The notes under the pieces were generated by a model, which saw nothing but the letters and a program-made list of their open reading frames with translations, had not been told where the DNA came from and ran no database searches. From Candidatus Niyogibacteria bacterium (GTDB lineage: Bacteria > Patescibacteriota > Minisyncoccia > HO2-45-28), in contig CP066691.1 in NCBI GenBank assembly GCA_016432485.1, forward strand, positions 388,709 through 452,708: a stretch of 64,000 nucleotides of DNA, written 5' to 3'. This document shows, piece after piece, positions 3,654 to 52,403 of this stretch (position 1 is its first letter; every line of letters begins with the position of its first letter). Position numbers and translations under genes: made by a program.

Positions 3654-3998
3654 CTTTCTTCCTCCTGAGTCAAGATTCTGCTTGGGTTCTTGGCCTTCAA
3701 AAACCCCTCATTTTCCAACTCTAATTATACTCCTATTTTAGTATTTTGTCAATAGCAGCCAAGCGCAAATTTTACCCTTAAAACTGCCCGTAGAACCGCC
3801 CAAGACACTCTGTATCGGCGGCTGCCTATCCCGCACTAAAATTGAATCCTGTGAGCTGGCGATTAGCTGCTTTCCCCCCAAAGGGGTATCACCCCGACAC
3901 CAGACGTTTCGCGTCGGTGCGGGGCACAGTCGGCACTACGATGTTTCGCCACACCACACTTCTTACGATCGTAAGAAGTGTGGTAGAATGGTTTTATA

Positions 3999-4523
3999 AT
4001 GAAAATCCCTGTGACCGACAAATTTTTATGGAAAATATATGACCTTATAGAAACGACCGAAGATGTTGTCGATTTTGTCGGACCAAGAACTATGTCCGAA
4101 GCCGTTTACCCTGATACAAGACGACTAAGACTCGAGTACCAAAAAGAAAAAGCCAGAAGAAGCTTTGCGGAATTTATTCGCTATCTTGGAGAAAAAGGAT
4201 ATATAAACATAAAAGCTCTTGAGGCGACAAGGGGATTTATTTTAACCCCAAAAGGAATCACAAAAGCTATTCGCGCAAAAAGAAAATTTCAAAAAAGGCG
4301 CAGAAGAAAAGATGGGCTTTGGATTATGGTTGTTTTTGATATTTCGGAAAAAAACAGGTTGGCAAGAGACGGTTTTCGCGTCAACCTGGCAGATTTAGGC
4401 TACACACAATTTCAAAAAAGCGTTTGGGTATGTCCTTATGACACATACAAAGAAACAGAAGAAGCAATAAGATTTTATAAAATTACTTCTTGCGTAAAAA
4501 TGTTTTTGATAAAAGAAATCTAA
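3999..4523 (+). CDS. short PaaX-like protein: winged HTH plus Cas2-like-fold middle domain (copy A)
   Basis: 174 aa. wHTH segment FAEFIRYLGEKGYINIKALEATRGFILTPKG resembles PaaX N-domain. WIMVVFDISEKNRLARDGFRVNLADLGYTQFQKSVWVCP resembles the PaaX middle / Cas2 beta1-alpha1-beta2 pattern. Paralog of 46855..47382. Confidence 0.6.
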   Translation: MKIPVTDKFLWKIYDLIETTEDVVDFVGPRTMSEAVYPDTRRLRLEYQKEKARRSFAEFIRYLGEKGYINIKALEATRGFILTPKGITKAIRAKRKFQKRRRRKDGLWIMVVFDISEKNRLARDGFRVNLADLGYTQFQKSVWVCPYDTYKETEEAIRFYKITSCVKMFLIKEI

Positions 4524-4622
4524 TCTTTCACCACGTTTTCTACGATCGTGAAAAGTGTGGTGAGTTACTAAAAATCTAATCATATTTTTTGTTAGTTTTA
4601 TAGTAAAAATTAGTTTTATAGT

Positions 4623-4649
4623 AAAAAGCTGTCCACTGAGGACAGCCTG
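4623..4649 (-). terminator. rho-independent terminator of the 23S-5S operon
   Basis: Minus-strand hairpin CAGGCTGTCC-ACTGAGG-ACAGC followed by TTTTT. Confidence 0.6.
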
Positions 4650-4779: not shown

Positions 4780-4892
4780 TCTTCAAGTTGGCGACTGCCT
4801 ACTCTCCCCTTGCGAGTACCATCGGCACTACGACGTTTTACGACCTTGTTCGGAATGGAAAAGGGTAGTTCCATCGCGTCAAGTCACCAACT
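4780..4892 (-). rRNA. rrf: 5S rRNA
   Basis: Minus-strand sequence CCGAACAAGGUCGUAAAACGUCGUAGUGCCGAUGGUACUCGCAAGGGGAGAGUAGGCAGUCGCC matches conserved 5S blocks (CCGAAC, GCCGAUGGUA, GAGAGUAGG). Confidence 0.85.
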
Positions 4893-5067
4893 TGGAAAAC
4901 TCAAACTTTAGCCACTTTTTAGGTCAAATAAATCTATAAGTATCAAAACATCGGGACAGAACTTGGCCATTTAGTACTCCTCGGCTGAACGCGTTGCCGC
5001 GCTTACACCTAGAGCCTATATACGTGCTAATCTCGCACGGGCCTCAACGATTCCTAATCTTGGAGTC

Positions 5068-5102
<35 letters not shown>

Positions 5103-5242
5103 TCCGAACATAGCTACCCAGCGGTGCTCCTGGCGGAACAGCTGGTAGACCAGAGGTTCGTTCGTTCCGGTCCTCTCGTACTAGGAACGACTCTCCTCAA
5201 GAATCAACGCCTGCAGTAGATAGGAGACCAACCTGTCTCACG

Positions 5243-5944
5243 CAATACTCAACTATTACTAATTGTTTGGACTATACCATCACCCCGCAACTGCGGGGGA
5301 CCGACGTGTTATCCGCCAATTTGGCGAATCTGGCTCAACCGAGCCAAGTCTCTACGGGGTCAGTACACGCTTAATTCTTTTTTTTGAGTAATTTAACTCT
5401 CTATATCTATCAACAAGTTTCAGTAGTCGTGAAAAATCGCTATCATTTTTCACGTCTTTTTTAACTCGCAAAATGTCCAGCATTAATTCCAACTGCTCTT
5501 TTTTAAGTCTTACATATGGCCTAACGCTGGCAAGAAAATCTTTTATATCATCAACCTTGTTTATGGTATATTCGATTATTCCATCTTTGCGATTCCTTAC
5601 TATACCGTAATTTATCAGAGAATATACTCGTTCAAAATTTTTACGATCTTTTGCTGACTGAAAAAATACAACGTATGGCGCGATTTGGAATCCGTAACGA
5701 TAAGTTGGATTCGGTTTCGCGCGCACGTAAACACTTCCATCGCCATCTAAAAATCCGGCGATGTAAGCTTTTTCGGTCGTTGAAAGATGTTTAAGCATAT
5801 ACGACTTCCCTCGGTATTATCCTAGCATACGACAGGTTGTTATTCAATGTGTATAACTAGGACTTCACCGATATGAGTCGGTTTTTCGATCCCGCTCGCG
5901 CGGGAAAGCCGCCGTGTGTTCTCAATGTTTTAAGGTTCTCTTTG
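5243..5944 (-). mobile_element. group I intron in 23S at the E. coli-equivalent L2593 site (I-CreI site)
   Basis: Exon junction reconstructs ...GGGUUCAAACCGU | CGUGAGACAGG... (E. coli AACGU|CGUGAGACAG, A2602 region). Intron begins after an exon U and ends with G. It contains a LAGLIDADG ORF in the rRNA orientation. Confidence 0.8.
5352..5798 (-). CDS. LAGLIDADG homing endonuclease (single-motif, I-CreI-like size)
   Basis: 148 aa containing the YIAGFLDGDGSVYV LAGLIDADG motif. Lies inside the 23S intron on the same strand. Confidence 0.85.
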   Translation of the reverse strand: MLKHLSTTEKAYIAGFLDGDGSVYVRAKPNPTYRYGFQIAPYVVFFQSAKDRKNFERVYSLINYGIVRNRKDGIIEYTINKVDDIKDFLASVRPYVRLKKEQLELMLDILRVKKDVKNDSDFSRLLKLVDRYRELNYSKKRIKRVLTP

Positions 5945-8095
5945 ACGGTTTGAACCCAGCTCGCGTATCTTTTTAATCGGCGAACAGCCGAACCCTTGGC
6001 AGCTTCTTCACCGCCAGGATAAGATGAGCCGACATCGAGGTGCCGAACACCGCCGTCGCTGTGGACGCTCGGGCGGTACTAGCCTGTTATCCCCGGAGTA
6101 GCTTTTATCCGTTGAGCTTTCGCGGCATCTAATGCCAACGATCGGATCACTACGCTCTGCTTTCGCACCTGCTCGGCATGTCCGCCTCGCAGTCAAGCCG
6201 GCTTATGGCGTTGCCCTATCGCTCCGATTTCCATCCGGAGCTAGCCGACCTTAATAGACCCCTCCATTACTCTTTAGGAGGGAAGTGCCCCACTTAAACT
6301 GCCCGCCAGATACTGTTCCCCGCGGTTTTTGCCCTCAAGGTTAGAATATAAGCGACTGAAGATGGGTATTTCACTGGCGGCTCCGTGTCATCCGAAAACA
6401 ACACTTCAAAGCCTCCCCACTATGCTACGCATCAGAAGCTTAAACCCAATATCAAGCTACAGTAAAGCTTCCGGGGTCTTTTCGTCTAACTGCAGGTAGC
6501 CGGCATCTTTACCGGCATTGTATTTTCACCGGGCTCCTCTCCGAGACAGTCCCCCAGTCGTTGCGCCTTTCGTGCACGTCTGAACTTACCAGACAAGGAA
6601 TTACGCTACTTTAACACGATTATAGTTATCGCGGACATTGACGAGGGCTTCGGTCGGTCAGCCAGACTAGTTAACTAGTAAACTAGCAAACTAGCAAGAC
6701 CGCCAACGTTAACCTTCTCGCATTGGTCAGGCGTCACCCCCTATACATCCTCTTACGAGTTCGCAGGGAGCTGTGTTTTTGGTAAACAGTCGCCAGGGGT
6801 ACTTTTGTTGCAGCCCCGCTCTTGCCCCGCAATTGCGGGGTGAACGGGGCAACTCTTATTGCTAACTTACGAGTGCTTTTTTGCCGAGTTCCTTGGAGAG
6901 GAATCACCCGTTCGCCTTGCTCTACTCGAGCCACCCACCTGTGTCGGTTTACGGTACGGTCCCCGCGCTTATGATTTTAGAAGTTTTTCTAGGAAGGCTC
7001 TTAAAGAAAATCCCTCCCGCCGTAGCGGAAAGTTCTTCTGCGGTATGAACTTTGCCTTGCGGCCGCTCTCCGGATTTTCCTGGAGAACAGCTCTTGCCAC
7101 AGAAACGCAAATCCAATAATGCGCTCTCTTTTATTTCCTCCGTCACTCCGTCAAAAAGCGAGGGGGCGCCGGAATATTAACCGGCTGTCCATCAGCTGCG
7201 GCTTTCGCCATTGCCTTAGGACCGGCTAACCCTTGGTTGATCACCATTGCCAAGGAAACCTTGGGTTTTCGGCGGGCCCGGATCTCACGGGCCTTGTGGT
7301 TACTTGTGCCAACATTCTCACTTCTCTACACTCCAGTCCGGCTCACGCCATAACCTTCACAGCATAGAGAATGCTCTCCTACCTCGCCAACGCAAAGCAT
7401 TGGCGACCCAATCTTCGGTACTTTGCTTAGCCCCGATTATCTTCGGCGCGAAATCTCTTAACGAGTGAGCTGTTACGCACTCTTTAAAGGATGGCTGCTT
7501 CTAAGCCAACCTCCTCGCTATCTGAGAAACCTCACCACCTTACTTGCACTTAGCAAAGATTTAGGGACCTTAGATGTGGGTTAGGGCTGTTTCCCTTTTG
7601 ACCAGTGGAGCTTAGCCCCCACGGTCTAACTGCCTCAATACGCTTCTGGTATTCGGAGTTTGGTAGGTGAGACGAGGTTTCCCCCTGTTCGCACCTTCCA
7701 GTAGCTCTACCCCCAGAAGTAATTTAAGACGCTAGCCCAAAAGCTATTTCGGAGAGAACCAGCTATTACCGAGTTCGATTAGCTTTTCACTCCTTGCCAC
7801 AACTCATCCGATGACGTTGAACGATCAACCAGTTCGGGCCTCCCTCCATCTTTCGACGGAGTTCACCCTGGTCATGGCAAGCTCACCCGGCTTCGGGTCT
7901 AATTCGTACTACCTGCAAACTAGCTTATAGCTGTTAGCTGTCAGCTGATAGAAGTTGCCCCCTAAAAACTGTAAGCTAAAAGCTAAAAGCTGAAATGCAA
8001 CGCGCTATTAACACTTGGTTTCCCTTTGATTGCGTCCCGTAGGACTTAGTCAAGCGATACGAATTAACTCGTTGGCTCATTCTTCAATAGGCACA

Positions 8096-21629: not shown

Positions 21630-22382
21630 TTAATTCCCCTCCAAGTCCAAGTCCGAACTCGGTTCGGATTCCGAACCGAGTTCGGACTTGGGCCGGTTTA
21701 TCCATTCACTTATAAATTTCCAATAATCCTCAACGCTGTTATCAAAATACTCCATCACCATACTTTTATCAATAAGTGACGCAAATTTTGTTCCTTGTTC
21801 AAGGTAATCAGGCAGACTAGACCACTTGTACTCCTTTAAAAACTTTTCCGCCCCCACTTTATCCTCAACATATCCCCTCTCTTTCCACATCGGGTCAAAT
21901 AATTCTAAAGGATTCAGATGAATATATCGGCTTACATGCGTAAAATGTTTGTCTCCGCCTATATGCACCGCCTTAAATTTGCCGCTAAAGAGCGGCCCCG
22001 AGCGTTTATATTTAGTATTAAAGTACAAAGCGTGGCTTACCTGAAGACGGTGCAGAAAAGCGCTTATGCCTCCTTCTTTCAGTTCTTTCACCAAGAGATG
22101 AAAATGATTTGGCATAAAACACCAGCTTAATATCTCAACCATTGGTTCCTTGTCGGAATCCGTCAGAGTCGGAACCGAGTTCTGCATTTGACGCGCTGGC
22201 TTGCCGGAGGCATCGTTCAAATAGAATAAAATAGTTGCAAATCTACGTCTATCAAAGTCATCTTCAAATATAGTGCGCTTTTCCACGCCTCTGGTAAAAA
22301 TGTGGTATATTTCCCCCTCTACAAAATCAATATCACGCATTGCCCTAAACTCTAACACACTGTCAGAACTCGGTTCTGACAA
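21630..22382 (-). CDS. REP-associated tyrosine transposase (IS200/IS605-like Y1 HuH transposase, RAYT)
   Basis: HuH motif CFMPNHFHLLV and catalytic-Tyr region HVSRYIHLNP. Flanked on both sides by REP palindromes. Confidence 0.7.
   Translation of the reverse strand: MSEPSSDSVLEFRAMRDIDFVEGEIYHIFTRGVEKRTIFEDDFDRRRFATILFYLNDASGKPARQMQNSVPTLTDSDKEPMVEILSWCFMPNHFHLLVKELKEGGISAFLHRLQVSHALYFNTKYKRSGPLFSGKFKAVHIGGDKHFTHVSRYIHLNPLELFDPMWKERGYVEDKVGAEKFLKEYKWSSLPDYLEQGTKFASLIDKSMVMEYFDNSVEDYWKFISEWINRPKSELGSESEPSSDLDLEGN
21641..21694. repeat. REP palindrome (GAACCGAGTTC family), locus 1
   Basis: CCAAGTCCGAACTCGGTTCGGATTCCGAACCGAGTTCGGACTTGG, a near-perfect ~50-bp palindrome. Confidence 0.75.
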
Positions 22383-22409
22383 AACTGTGGATAAGTTGTG
22401 AATATGTCC

Positions 22410-22445
22410 ATCCGAACCGAGTTCGGACTGAACTCGGTTCGGATC
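22410..22445. repeat. REP palindrome, locus 2
   Basis: TCCGAACCGAGTTCGGACTGAACTCGGTTCGGATCG, immediately upstream of the RAYT start. Confidence 0.75.
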
Positions 22446-22452
22446 GAATAAA

Positions 22453-23112
22453 CTATTGGAGCGAATCTAGAAACAATTGGATGTCGCCGGTGGGGTCGGC
22501 GCCGGCGGAAATGCCTTGTTCTAAAACTTCCCTAGCCCTACTTATATCCCCCATTACTTCCCTATAAAATCCGGCCATTTGATAATAAACAAAGCCGTTC
22601 TTGGGCTCGGCTTGAATAGCTTTTGAGAAACTTTCCTCCGCCTTCTGATTATTATGAATGTAATAAGCGTAGAGATCGGCCGAATTTAAAAAAGATGTGG
22701 CTATGTTGGGACGAATAATGCCCGCAAAACTCCACGCTTCAATCGCTCCTTCATAGTCGCCCGCGGACTTTCTCAAAATACCCAATTGAAGCCAACCCTG
22801 CAGATAGTTATAATTACCCTTCAGCATTAAAGAAACCTCCTGTATGTCTAAAATCAGTTGTTGGCGTCTTTCCTTCGAAATACCAACCACAACCTTAATA
22901 GGCCTCTCTAAATCAGGGATATTCTTGTCAATTACGGCAGATTCCGAACCGAGTTCGGCAGCTGCAGAACTCGGTTCGGACTCGGGTTCTGGTTCGAATA
23001 GCGGCGGAGGCAAGGGTAACGGAACTTTCTGGTCGCGCCAGATGAAATATCCGGCCACTGCGACAATAACAAGTAAAAATAAAGGCAAAAGCGGTTTAAA
23101 TTTTAAGTTCAT
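22453..23112 (-). CDS. TPR-repeat protein with N-terminal TM anchor
   Basis: 219 aa. TPR-like helices in the C-terminal half. Linker EPEPESEPSSAAAELGSESAV is encoded by a REP palindrome. Confidence 0.5.
   Translation of the reverse strand: MNLKFKPLLPLFLLVIVAVAGYFIWRDQKVPLPLPPPLFEPEPESEPSSAAAELGSESAVIDKNIPDLERPIKVVVGISKERRQQLILDIQEVSLMLKGNYNYLQGWLQLGILRKSAGDYEGAIEAWSFAGIIRPNIATSFLNSADLYAYYIHNNQKAEESFSKAIQAEPKNGFVYYQMAGFYREVMGDISRAREVLEQGISAGADPTGDIQLFLDSLQ
22942..22998. repeat. REP palindrome, locus 3 (inside coding sequence)
   Basis: TTCCGAACCGAGTTCGGCAGCTGCAGAACTCGGTTCGGACTCGGGTTCTGGTTCGAA. Confidence 0.7.
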
Positions 23113-23160: not shown

Positions 23161-23203
23161 AAATCCGAACTCGGTTCGGCACGAACCGAGTTCGGAATCG
23201 GAA
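23161..23203. repeat. REP palindrome, locus 4
   Basis: AATCCGAACTCGGTTCGGCACGAACCGAGTTCGGAATCGG. Confidence 0.7.
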
Positions 23204-28201: not shown

Positions 28202-28246
28202 TGTTTATAATTCTAAACGCCCCAAAATTTTTTGCAAATCCAAAAC

Positions 28247-28286
28247 GTGCAGAACCGAGTTCTGCGTCAGAACTCGGTTCTGCACG
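28247..28286. repeat. REP-variant palindrome, locus 5
   Basis: GTGCAGAACCGAGTTCTGCGTCAGAACTCGGTTCTGCAC. Confidence 0.65.
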
Positions 28287-29831: not shown

Positions 29832-29897
29832 ATTATTTTTTAAAATCTACTAATTTCTATCATTAACATTCATCAACGGCCGTTGATGAATGTTAAC

Positions 29898-45741: not shown

Positions 45742-45752
45742 ACCCAGTACAA

Positions 45753-45959
45753 TTACACCGATTTATAATTTCGCAATCTCATGCCAAACCACCTTCGACC
45801 CCTTGTGGTTTTTAAATATCTTTCTCTTTGTTGAGCGTCCTCTTTGTTTAAACATGCTTCATAATATATTAACTTCAATGGCCTGTAATTATCGCCATCT
45901 TTATCGCTATGCGGAACATAAGTGTAGAAGAACACAATCGGTGTAATTGTACTGGGCAT
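45753..45959 (-). pseudogene. degraded GIY-YIG nuclease-family gene remnant
   Basis: FFYTYVPHSDKDGD (cf. YVYIL.SEKDGS) jumps directly to YRPLKLIYYEA...RERYLKTTRGRRWFG (cf. RPLKLVYYEEF...REYQLKKWSR). The YIGyT..RR..H core is deleted. Confidence 0.45.
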
Positions 45960-46032
45960 AAATAAATATTCTAACTTATTTCAAGATAAATAAAAATACG
46001 GCGACCCCACGGCCGTCGCATATTTTTATCGT

Positions 46033-46671
46033 TTAGTTGCCGATAAGAACCTTTCCTGAAACGGCGTTCTGGTATGTATAAAAAACCTCGCGAAGCGCCG
46101 ATTCATAACCAGCTTTTACTTGAAACCCTACGACGAGAAAAAATTTTCCCGATTCAAAATCCCGAATCAATTCTTCTTTGTTTGTGAAGTGGGAGAAAAA
46201 CTCTTTGTATATATCAAGTTCCTGGACAAGAGTTTTTTTGGGTATTTTTTTATCTCTTGGATGTCCCCAGATTGTCTCAAGGCACTGCCTTGGTTCCCAG
46301 AGGGCGAAGCCCGTTCCTTTGTCCACCGACATTCCTTTGGATTCATAAAAGAACTTTTCGGCAGGCGTAAGGCTTGTCATCTCAAGTCGTCCTGAAAAGG
46401 GAGTTCTGCGGTAGGTTTGAAATCCCGGACATTGCGGAAAATCTGGAAAACCGGCAATCTCAATTTTCAAGAAGGGTCTACCCTCCTTGATAAACACGGT
46501 TACTTTATCGCCATCCCAATAGTGATAAAGGCCGATGATGCTCGCACCCACGTTACTGGCAACGCTCAACTCAACAAACAAAAGGGCCGCTGCAAACAGC
46601 AGAAGCATTTTTTTCATTCGCTTCACCTCCTTCTTAAGCGGAGAAGGCGCCTTCCTTGGACGCGGCTCCAC
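46033..46671 (-). CDS. secreted hypothetical protein
   Basis: Signal peptide MKKMLLLFAAALLFVELSVASNVGAS. Confidence 0.4.
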   Translation of the reverse strand: MEPRPRKAPSPLKKEVKRMKKMLLLFAAALLFVELSVASNVGASIIGLYHYWDGDKVTVFIKEGRPFLKIEIAGFPDFPQCPGFQTYRRTPFSGRLEMTSLTPAEKFFYESKGMSVDKGTGFALWEPRQCLETIWGHPRDKKIPKKTLVQELDIYKEFFSHFTNKEELIRDFESGKFFLVVGFQVKAGYESALREVFYTYQNAVSGKVLIGN

Positions 46672-46796
46672 ATAGAGCCGGCCCGCAGAAGCGAGCTGAA
46701 AAGAACTACGACCGTATTATAATCGCCCGCACCAAAATGTCAAACCAAACCTCGCCCAAACACGGAACACCAAATATAAAACAGAGCGTATAATCT

Positions 46797-46830
46797 AATA
46801 CAGGCGATCGCTTTTATTAGATTATTGGTG
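46797..46830. repeat. GCGATCGC-centred palindrome upstream of PaaX-like copy B
   Basis: AATACAGGCGATCGCTTTTATTAGATTATT. Repeated at 47380..47412. Confidence 0.7.
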
Positions 46831-46854
46831 TAAAATCATATATAATTAAACATT

Positions 46855-47382
46855 ATGCGGCTACCTATTACGGACGAATTTTTGTGGAAATTGTATGATT
46901 TTACTGAAGAGCTTGATAAAACATATGACTTTTTCGCCCCGCGCACACCATACGAAATAGTCTATCCTGAAATACATCGCTTAAAACGCGAGTATCAAAG
47001 ATCAAGCGCGCGAACAGGTTTCAGTCAATTTGTACAAAATCTGCAAAACAGAGGATATATTCAAGTAAAGGCGCTCAAAGGAACAAGGGGCGTTATTCTC
47101 ACGCCGAAAGGCGCCGAAAGAGCATTGAGAATAAAGTTAAAATTCGTAAAAAAGAAAAAGCGAAAAGATAATAAATGGATTATGATTATTTTCGATATAC
47201 CAGAAAAACAAAGACGCGCAAGAGAATTGTTCAGAAACGCGCTGATAAATCTTGGGTATCAAAAACTACAAAAAAGCGTTTGGGTGTGCCCTTACGACGT
47301 GCACAAAGAAACAGAAGAAGCGATACGGGCATACCGCTCCATTCCTTACGTCAAACTTTTTATTATAGAAGAGATAATCTAA
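46855..47382 (+). CDS. short PaaX-like protein: winged HTH plus Cas2-like-fold middle domain (copy B)
   Basis: 175 aa. FVQNLQNRGYIQVKALKGTRGVILTPKG (cf. PaaX FVRTALFRLNKEGWLDVSRIGRRSFYSLSDKG). KDNKWIMIIFDIPEKQRRARELFRNALINLGYQKLQKSVWVCP (cf. PaaX WDGKWLLLLSEGL...LIWQGFGALAPSLMASP). Confidence 0.6.
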   Translation: MRLPITDEFLWKLYDFTEELDKTYDFFAPRTPYEIVYPEIHRLKREYQRSSARTGFSQFVQNLQNRGYIQVKALKGTRGVILTPKGAERALRIKLKFVKKKKRKDNKWIMIIFDIPEKQRRARELFRNALINLGYQKLQKSVWVCPYDVHKETEEAIRAYRSIPYVKLFIIEEII

Positions 47383-47412
47383 TACGGGCGATCGCTTTTA
47401 TTAGATTATTAA
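47380..47412. repeat. GCGATCGC-centred palindrome downstream of PaaX-like copy B
   Basis: TAATACGGGCGATCGCTTTTATTAGATTATT. Direct repeat of 46797..46830. Confidence 0.7.
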
Positions 47413-47430
47413 TATTTTCGGCCCAATCCC

Positions 47431-52286: not shown

Positions 52287-52403
52287 ATAAAACAAAAAAT
52301 TGGGTAATGCGTTGAGTAATGCACCGACTTAACATATCCTAACGGCCGTTAGGATATGTTAAGCGGATTTTAAAACAAAAAACTCGCCCGTCTTAAACTA
52401 AAT

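Follow-up and report, generated by a model that had tools for sequence, protein, structure and literature searches.

The window analysed here is a 64,000-nt stretch of a Candidatus Niyogibacteria genome (assembly GCA_016432485.1, contig CP066691.1, positions 388,709-452,708). It carries two paralogous genes, A (3999-4523, plus strand) and B (46855-47382, plus strand), which encode short PaaX-like proteins of 174 and 175 amino acids (aa), respectively. Each gene lies between two copies of a palindrome with a sequence of its own. This palindrome-bracketed layout is confirmed and extends across the family of related genes, with about 70% of the relatives from other genomes showing it. By their sequences, A and B belong to a large family of ~175-aa, putatively DNA-binding PaaX-like proteins of Patescibacteria. 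On balance, we lean towards reading such a protein as a dimeric PaaX-like repressor that has no effector domain, regulates its own gene through a private 38-bp operator, and has a cognate operator on each side of the gene. In this account, we infer that the protein binds, represses, and dimerises, and also what the downstream copy does. Patescibacteria (the candidate phyla radiation, CPR) have tiny genomes, and their gene regulation is almost unknown. If the palindromes are binding sites, which is most likely, the family sites would define a large, undescribed regulator family.

Proteins A and B and their relatives

Both open reading frames (ORFs) encode a predicted winged-helix N-domain followed by a Cas2-fold C-domain. 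The two proteins are 55% identical over their full length (96/174, E 5e-67). An earlier, sequence-only reading of this DNA had called them clear paralogues with about 45% identity; the paralogy stands, and the figure is replaced by the measured one. The Pfam family PaaX_M (PF20803), the central Cas2-like domain of PaaX, matches residues ~102-171 of both proteins, with E 3.3e-18 and 66 bits for A, and E 6.8e-21 and 74.6 bits for B, against a cut-off of 24. These scores and the fold matches given below confirm the likeness to the PaaX middle domain and the Cas2 core that the earlier reading had recognised. NCBIfam TIGR02277, the model of full-length PaaX, gives 23.4 and 26.4 bits, far under its cut-off of 264.55, and its alignment extends back to residue 61 of B. 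The Pfam PaaX N-domain has no match in A or B at E<=1. PaaX_C has no Pfam match in either protein, and both end directly after the Cas2-fold domain, as had been stated before. A sequence search of the PDB with the family profile gives no meaningful match, and tblastn finds no third paralogue in the window.

The AlphaFold2 model of protein A was built from 125 aligned sequences and replaces an earlier model from 31 sequences with a poor N-domain (predicted local distance difference test, pLDDT, 74). It reaches a pLDDT of 84.9, and comprises two helices, a β-hairpin wing (residues 69-82), and a linker helix, followed by a C-domain of β-α-β-β-α-β order with a pLDDT of 96-98. The best PDB match in Foldseek is E. 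coli PaaX 8a39 (E 5.8e-4, 114 columns, root-mean-square deviation 4.0). Rv0674 (3kfw) aligns over 120 columns, and both alignments span the two domains. For many Cas2 and VapD structures, the match is confined to the C-domain, with a probability of 1.0 for Cas2. The PaaX-type winged helix of the sequence-only reading is thus supported at the level of the fold only, and lacks a Pfam N-domain match. The residues D114, R123, Q139, and S141 are invariant in 125 diverse family members, and D114, which is part of the motif FDIPE, aligns with the Asp of the Cas2 β1 motif YDI. In Cas2, this Asp is the metal-binding catalytic residue.

NCBI labels several homologues as Cas2 proteins associated with clustered regularly interspaced short palindromic repeats (CRISPR). 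This is consistent with NCBIfam TIGR01573 (cas2), which scores 24.9 bits for A and 35.3 bits for B, just over its cut-off of 24.5, with PADLOC, in which only Cas2 models match (E 7.5e-9 for A and 5e-11 for B), and with the Cas2 structures that match the C-domain. However, only about half of the TIGR01573 model is covered, PaaX_M scores far higher, and Pfam CRISPR_Cas2 matches both proteins more weakly than PaaX_M. The total length of 174-175 aa, compared with ~90-100 aa for a stand-alone Cas2, includes an extra N-terminal DNA-binding domain of ~100 aa. No CRISPR repeat family or array is found in the window, and no Cas1 is found among the recurrent neighbours of the 80 family loci introduced below. 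A genuine CRISPR-associated Cas2 is therefore extremely improbable, the database annotation is not supported by the context, and the recurrent label 'CRISPR-associated endonuclease Cas2' is corrected by this analysis. An HUH or IS200-like transposase was also considered and rejected; HUH and Tyr motifs are absent, and Pfam and the fold point to Cas2/PaaX_M. In Pfam, NCBIfam, and PADLOC, the matches are to PaaX_M and Cas2 only, and none is to a recombinase or HUH/Y1 transposase.

A protein search finds 31 close homologues, all of 160-182 aa and all with PF20803. A scan of one genome per species gives 105 relatives, from which 80 loci were taken; 79 of them are testable for paired sites. Nearly all carry the source label of metagenome-assembled genomes (MAGs) from the Patescibacteria radiation, and a few are labelled 'archaeon' or Saccharibacteria. 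Among the loci listed, a genome has up to four paralogues, every one of which has a private site. When 1.84 billion representative proteins are searched with the family profile, 5,676 clusters (50% identity) are found at E<=1e-3 and 3,179 at E<=1e-10, with lengths that are nearly all 170-200 aa. Viral contigs contain no relatives of the short PaaX-like proteins. The searchable literature holds no description of this gene and palindrome arrangement and no paper with both 'PaaX' and 'Cas2', and its top-ranked Patescibacteria/CPR papers do not include PaaX.

The paired sites were scored by comparing the 150 bp ahead of the start codon with the 150 bp past the stop codon, with ORFs from the same DNA as controls. 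A repeat score of at least 14 is reached by 63/79 family loci versus 7/289 control ORFs, and a score of at least 20 by 43/79 versus 1/289. Both copies of the palindrome can be placed in register at 57 loci. Some other loci have a more distant partner copy, at +1.6 kb (L003), -321 bp (L020), -220 bp (L039), and +714 bp (L068). In these four loci and in L057, the partner palindrome is 0.2-1.6 kb off and encloses one more ORF together with the regulator gene. L057 also has a third copy 730 bp upstream.

The 38-bp palindrome and the predicted promoter

The upstream site of gene A occupies 3950-3987 in the 38-bp frame. It contains a perfect 32-bp palindrome (3953-3984) on the core CGATCG, and its centre is 30 bp before the ATG. 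A perfect palindrome at this place had been reported before with a length of 28 bp; it is there, and is longer. The downstream site of A (4528-4563) begins 5 nt past the stop codon and is an imperfect palindrome in the same register, with arms that are 82% complementary and with 27/36 central positions equal to the upstream copy. This is the related imperfect palindrome that the earlier reading had seen downstream of A. An 18-bp unit (TTAGTTTTATAGTAAAAA) is exactly duplicated in tandem at 4592-4627, between the rRNA terminator and this downstream site. Gene B has the same layout with a different palindrome, again as previously described. Its upstream site (46790-46825) is a 36-bp imperfect palindrome on GCGATCGC, with a centre 47 bp before the ATG, and its downstream site (47374-47409) is identical to it at 35/36 positions and covers the last 9 nt of the ORF with the stop codon. 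At up to three mismatches, the A and B sites have no further copy in the window, and 100 shuffles give an expectation of zero. The window holds 20 zero-loop palindromes scoring at least 9, versus 0-3 in shuffles. A separate palindrome family on TCCGAACCGAGTTCGGA has at least five copies in ~7 kb (21647-21691, 22407-22447, 22940-22983, 23164-23196, and 28246-28286).

Across the paired loci, the site is a palindrome of 38 bp, with a complementarity of 0.70-0.98 at positions 1-19 from the centre that falls to background beyond. The core consists of six palindromic bases, most often CGGCCG (40) or CGATCG (37), and less often AAGCTT (12), CAATTG (4), AACGTT (4), or rarer variants. The centre-finding favours symmetric centres, and the same cores are recovered independently by the alignment of upstream and downstream copies. 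Positions 8-10 form an A-rich spacer. In the outer arms, at positions 11-18, identity is 72-96% from copy to copy within a locus and 25-45% from locus to locus. The symmetry reaches the central two bases, and 2-4 central bases could not pair in a hairpin. Around the gene, the two copies are in direct orientation at 14 loci and inverted at 11, with 32 ties, and asymmetric pairs compared across the two copies are the same in 17 cases, flipped in 12, and otherwise in 122. Since the copies share neither orientation nor imperfections, each half-site is kept independently to one consensus. One consensus over four half-sites is the pattern that a symmetric dimer would impose, unlike the leftover of a recent duplication.

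The similarity of the arms between loci climbs with the identity of the N-domains, from 0.37 (<35% identity) to 0.70 (>75%). In a Mantel test of arms against N-domains, 12/500 permutations reach the observed value. Core similarity follows the identity of the C-domains slightly better (1/500 permutations), and this effect is also weak.

The position of the upstream copy is conserved relative to the gene. Its centre lies 26-33 bp before the ATG in 23/57 loci, the 'near' class, and at -38 to -105 or further in the others. In 33/57 loci, the gene-proximal arm matches at least 5/6 of TATAAT at its positions 16-21, which each of the other three arms does in 13-21/57. Of the near loci, 18/23 have this -10 element in the gene-proximal arm, and the ATG follows 6-9 nt on, without a Shine-Dalgarno sequence. 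Gene A has a predicted extended -10 (TGgTAGAAT, 3981-3989, plus strand), read from the sequence, which lies in and abuts the gene-proximal arm 9 nt before the ATG; no Shine-Dalgarno sequence is found before this ATG. The near-class genes, including A, probably have leaderless or near-leaderless transcripts with the promoter within the palindrome. The downstream centres cluster at +9, at +14/+15 (18/57), and at +19 to +22 past the stop codon.

The reading of the upstream copy as an operator is well supported because of its conserved position, the -10 element in the proximal arm, the locus specificity, the symmetry up to the centre, and the PaaX-like span. In the proposed mechanism, the Cas2-fold domains would dimerise, as this region does in PaaX, and would set the winged helices ~29 bp apart. 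The winged helices would read the locus-specific outer arms of the 38-bp palindrome (positions 11-18 from the centre), and the CGRYCG-type core with the A-rich spacer would sit under the Cas2-fold dimer. Since the upstream copy overlaps the promoter of its own gene, the bound protein is proposed to block RNA polymerase there, which would give negative autoregulation like that of PaaX at Px. The downstream copy may be a second cognate operator. Most likely, it would stop read-through and antisense transcription as a roadblock or insulator, or would be the second anchor of a loop for repression; at some loci, it may be the operator of the promoter of the next gene. The copies that lie as orphans elsewhere in the genome would make up a small regulon. 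The ~60 protein-site pairs that come from comparison alone could offer a legible recognition code and a means to study site specificity. Such pairs could also be used for regulon prediction from orphan sites, and for non-interfering repressor and operator sets in engineering.

Several observations weigh against this mechanism. Proteins A and B have no effector-binding domain, and the co-variation of protein and arms is weak overall (rho 0.11). The start of the next gene is at promoter distance from the downstream copy in only some loci. As the promoter of the next gene, it could serve in a subset of loci only, and its -10 matches are no better than those of the other non-proximal arms. The sequence-only reading had proposed autoregulatory operators on both sides; the comparative evidence supports the upstream one well, and the downstream one is a candidate. 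Because the Asp aligned with the Cas2 β1 Asp is invariant, D114 together with R123, Q139, and S141 leaves room for a putative enzymatic role. Copies that differ tend towards self-symmetry. Where the two copies differ, symmetry is retained by both at 64 positions, by only one of them at 186, and by neither at 38, and pairs within the own arms amount to 314/576 versus 200/576 across sites. On the sense strand, mismatches favour G.T over A.C (98 versus 56). The self-symmetry and the G.T excess hint at selection on the hairpin or at templated correction. Templated correction of quasi-palindromes is a possible source of within-site symmetry. The self-symmetry excess could also be partly selection bias, and the G.T excess could reflect strand composition.

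The same two biases fit an alternative in which the palindromes work mainly as RNA, as bidirectional terminators or 3'-stabilising hairpins that the encoded protein does not recognise. The downstream copies start at or just past the stop codon, with the +14/+15 cluster of centres, and the orphan copies described below also sit 14-27 nt past stop codons. The genome uses other palindromic terminators as well. However, a hairpin requires complementarity only, and this leaves the locus-private shared sequence and the co-variation of arms and protein unexplained. The symmetry includes the central two bases, which are unable to pair. A T-tract is not consistently present, and these sites are not called in the terminator scan. 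The upstream copy holds the -10 element, so that it would be largely untranscribed from its own promoter. A function mainly at the level of RNA is accordingly improbable, and the private-operator reading is preferred for these sites.

Insertion history and orphan sites

The family gene is usually co-directional with its neighbours within arrays of housekeeping genes. The recurrent contexts, with the family gene as X, are Mur ligase-DegT|X|FemAB-FtsQ, helicase-DprA|X|TopA, MetRS-TatD|X, X|LigA, and SDR|X|MBL-ADK. No paa catabolic genes are found nearby, and the neighbours in the window are rRNA, murJ, and lepA. No Cas1, recombinase, or transposase is found among the recurrent neighbours of the 80 loci. 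Orthologues often hold their context, yet proteins that are 75-86% identical also occur in differing contexts, and a single conserved gene cluster can have the unit at different junctions.

Both units of the window are missing at the same junctions in relatives. In three relatives (L201-L203; MurJ 71-76% identical), lepA follows murJ after 18-37 bp. The window has an insert of 1.69 kb at this place (45742-47430). Within it are unit B, which is antisense to murJ and lepA, a 212-aa ORF, and a GIY-YIG remnant. The 212-aa signal-peptide ORF (46033-46671, minus strand) has a perfect TTGACA-N16-TATAAT promoter (12/12 sigma-70) at 46743-46716 and a terminator with a ACGGCCGT core (46015-46002). A 67-aa ORF (45765-45965, minus strand) matches only the C-terminal half of the GIY-YIG domain.

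The comparison for unit A is the relative L206, which has no family gene within 16.7 kb. Its 5S 3' end and downstream flank match 3877-3817 of the window at 93%. The functional 5S gene of the window (4786-4891, minus strand) is 79% identical to the L206 5S, from which it differs in helix I and the processing stem; the adjoining 23S 3' end is 93% identical. At 3853-3946 (minus strand), an older 5S gene survives as a remnant of its 3' half, which has an L206-type helix-I strand and an internal insertion of ~30 nt and marks the far boundary of the A-bearing segment. Rfam gives no 5S match in the region upstream of A, and the remnant is established by the L206 comparison alone. A foreign segment comprising a 5S gene, a terminator (4648-4626), and unit A appears to have replaced the 5' part of the old 5S gene, and the working 5S gene looks to have been replaced horizontally. 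The A-bearing extra DNA measures ~0.9-1.1 kb, including the foreign 5S gene and terminator. By these comparisons, A and B both lie in DNA that is missing from close relatives and can be placed in the flexible genome. A perfect 12/12 sigma-70 promoter at 3752-3724 (minus strand) points away from gene A to a 143-aa ORF.

Three DprA|X|TopA loci have a second copy of the final 65-70 bp of dprA beyond the unit. The copies of this 3' end (~21 codons) lie just upstream of topA, at 3600-3669 in L061, 2051-2115 in L071, and 3637-3706 in L080; the copy in L061 stops at the topA ATG. The family gene of this trio has diverged as much as dprA (65-72% versus 70-71% nucleotide identity), which points to one old insertion followed by vertical descent; recent, independent insertions of distinct elements at one target, marked by the duplicated ends, are rejected on this ground. 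The remnant copies are 77-89% conserved between genomes, versus 71-76% for the coding copy and 70-71% for the dprA body. Since they are better conserved than dprA, they may serve as a leader or promoter of topA. Outer direct repeats beyond the palindromes are limited to the DprA|TopA group, with a weak case at A in the window.

These insertions are a ground for regarding the unit as a mobile or formerly mobile cassette, with the palindromes as recombination or cleavage sites and the protein as a nuclease or recombination-directing factor, or with passive repeat-repeat movement into orphan sites. The absence of both units from the relatives, the duplicated dprA ends, the similar proteins in differing contexts, the different junctions of one cluster, the several paralogues per genome, and the existence of orphan sites all agree with it, as do the invariant Asp aligned with the catalytic Asp of Cas2, the sense-strand G.T bias, and the excess of within-site symmetry. 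However, the inserts in the window are larger than the palindrome-bounded units, and the flanking copies have no common orientation or imperfections. The paralogues are old (55% identity in the window), and near-identical copies are absent. The dprA trio represents one old insertion with vertical descent, and synteny groups are stable across genomes. There is no recombinase or transposase among the recurrent neighbours and no relative on viral contigs, and we know of no transposase or integrase activity of the Cas2 fold. The shown insertion polymorphism lends the mobile cassette some support, and we consider it unlikely. A narrower version, in which the protein, besides being a repressor, is a site-specific nuclease or recombination factor that cuts or pairs its private palindrome at the CGRYCG core and in which the gene and two palindromes form a minimal mobile cassette of a new kind that moves from one cognate orphan palindrome to another, is distinctly doubtful.

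The sequence-only reading had also suggested a compact selfish unit with the hairpins as its ends. This is not supported in that form, given the larger inserts, the copies without shared orientation or imperfections, the lack of near-identical copies, and the lack of a recombinase nearby. The palindromes are not element ends, because the inserted DNA extends past them, with the 5S gene and terminator at A and two more ORFs at B. Integron attC and Xer/dif sites were considered and dismissed; the palindromes are perfect and locus-specific, with no arrays and no common site. If the unit were mobile after all, it would represent mobile elements of a new type, based on the Cas2 fold, with a bearing on how this fold was recruited to DNA transactions, and the orphan sites would be empty or landing sites.

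Two orphan sites are present in the window, of the same class as the A and B sites and with a different arm type. The first (29863-29896) has the form TTAACAT-N7-ACGGCCGT-N7-ATGTTAA and lies between the stop of one minus-strand ORF and the start of another, which we take to be msrA and msrB from their translations rather than from a profile result. The second (52328-52363), of the same class and the same TTAACAT-type arm, is 78 bp upstream of the 5' end of the RNase P RNA. No family gene lies near either site. In a relative, MAG CAYPMM01, a paralogue (L002) has TAACAT-type sites, and a third paralogue elsewhere in the genome of the window is thus predicted; the window orphans alone would predict it as well.

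In a reverse test, metagenomes were scanned for TAACAT-N8-CGRYCG-N8-ATGTTA, and a site was counted as orphan when no family gene was near, with at least 800 bp on each side. The scan finds 29 sites within 200 bp of a family gene, some genes having sites on both sides, and 47 orphans (~60% of this site type). The orphans are mostly good palindromes and intergenic, often 14-27 nt past a stop codon and 27-57 nt before a start codon. Their spacing to neighbouring stops and starts matches that of the gene-flanking copies. Since orphan copies exist, the palindromes are not confined to the flanks of the genes. The tie between palindrome and gene on which the sequence-only reading relied is therefore partial, with ~60% of one site type found away from these genes. 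The orphans fit a regulon as well as scars or landing sites. From their copy number, small regulons seem likelier than a REP-like spread.

The window also carries 23S and 5S rRNA, RNase P RNA, and four tRNAs. The 23S match is broken near its 3' end (~4950-5945) by an insert with a LAGLIDADG endonuclease ORF (5352-5798, minus strand; PF00961, E 2.7e-8). Presumably, the insert is a group I intron that encodes a homing endonuclease. L206 has an insertion of different sequence at the corresponding place of its 23S gene.

Comparison with known systems

Cas2 and VapD resemble the C-domain of the family in fold and in the motif FDIPE...R...Q.S.W, including the β1 Asp. In contrast, the family is fused to a winged helix and has no cas1, CRISPR array, or VapX-like partner. 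In Cas1-Cas2 complexes, the Cas2 dimer lies along duplex DNA.

In REP/RAYT pairs and in IS200/IS605 elements, a small gene is flanked by hairpin-forming palindromes. The likeness consists of a ~0.5-kb gene between similar palindromes, with extra palindrome copies in the genome. However, the family has no HUH/Y1 motifs, has a Cas2/PaaX_M fold, and has a low copy number of palindromes. Each family paralogue has its own palindrome sequence, and recent copies are absent.

The cI gene of phage lambda lies between OL and OR, with looping. The regulator gene of the family likewise lies between cognate, here predicted, operators, of which the upstream one is over its own promoter. It differs from lambda cI in that it is one small chromosomal gene with one palindrome per side, recurring in many paralogues.

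The PaaX comparators are the phenylacetyl-CoA-responsive paa repressors of E. coli and Pseudomonas, with the structures 8a39 and 3l09 and the Pfam families PaaX, PaaX_M, and PaaX_C. The operator of E. coli PaaX is TGATTC-N27-GAATCA with a span of 39 bp, PaaX represses its own Px promoter by hindering RNA polymerase, and its C-terminal region binds the inducer (PMC9493321). The family shares with PaaX a Cas2-fold domain (PF20803; best fold match 8a39) behind an N-domain that, at the level of the fold, is a winged helix. It also shares the widely spaced inverted half-sites, with 39 bp in PaaX and 38 bp in the predicted operator described here. The predicted site overlaps its own promoter, with the -10 element in the proximal arm, and PaaX represses itself (PMC9493321). 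In contrast, the family proteins have ~175 aa without the C-terminal helical domain, whereas the PaaX chain in 8a39 has 305 aa. The family has no Pfam N-domain match and no paa genes, and scores far below the TIGR02277 cut-off. It is further set apart from PaaX by several paralogues per genome with private palindromes, by a second cognate site at the stop codon, and by a palindromic core that is conserved besides the arms in the family sites.

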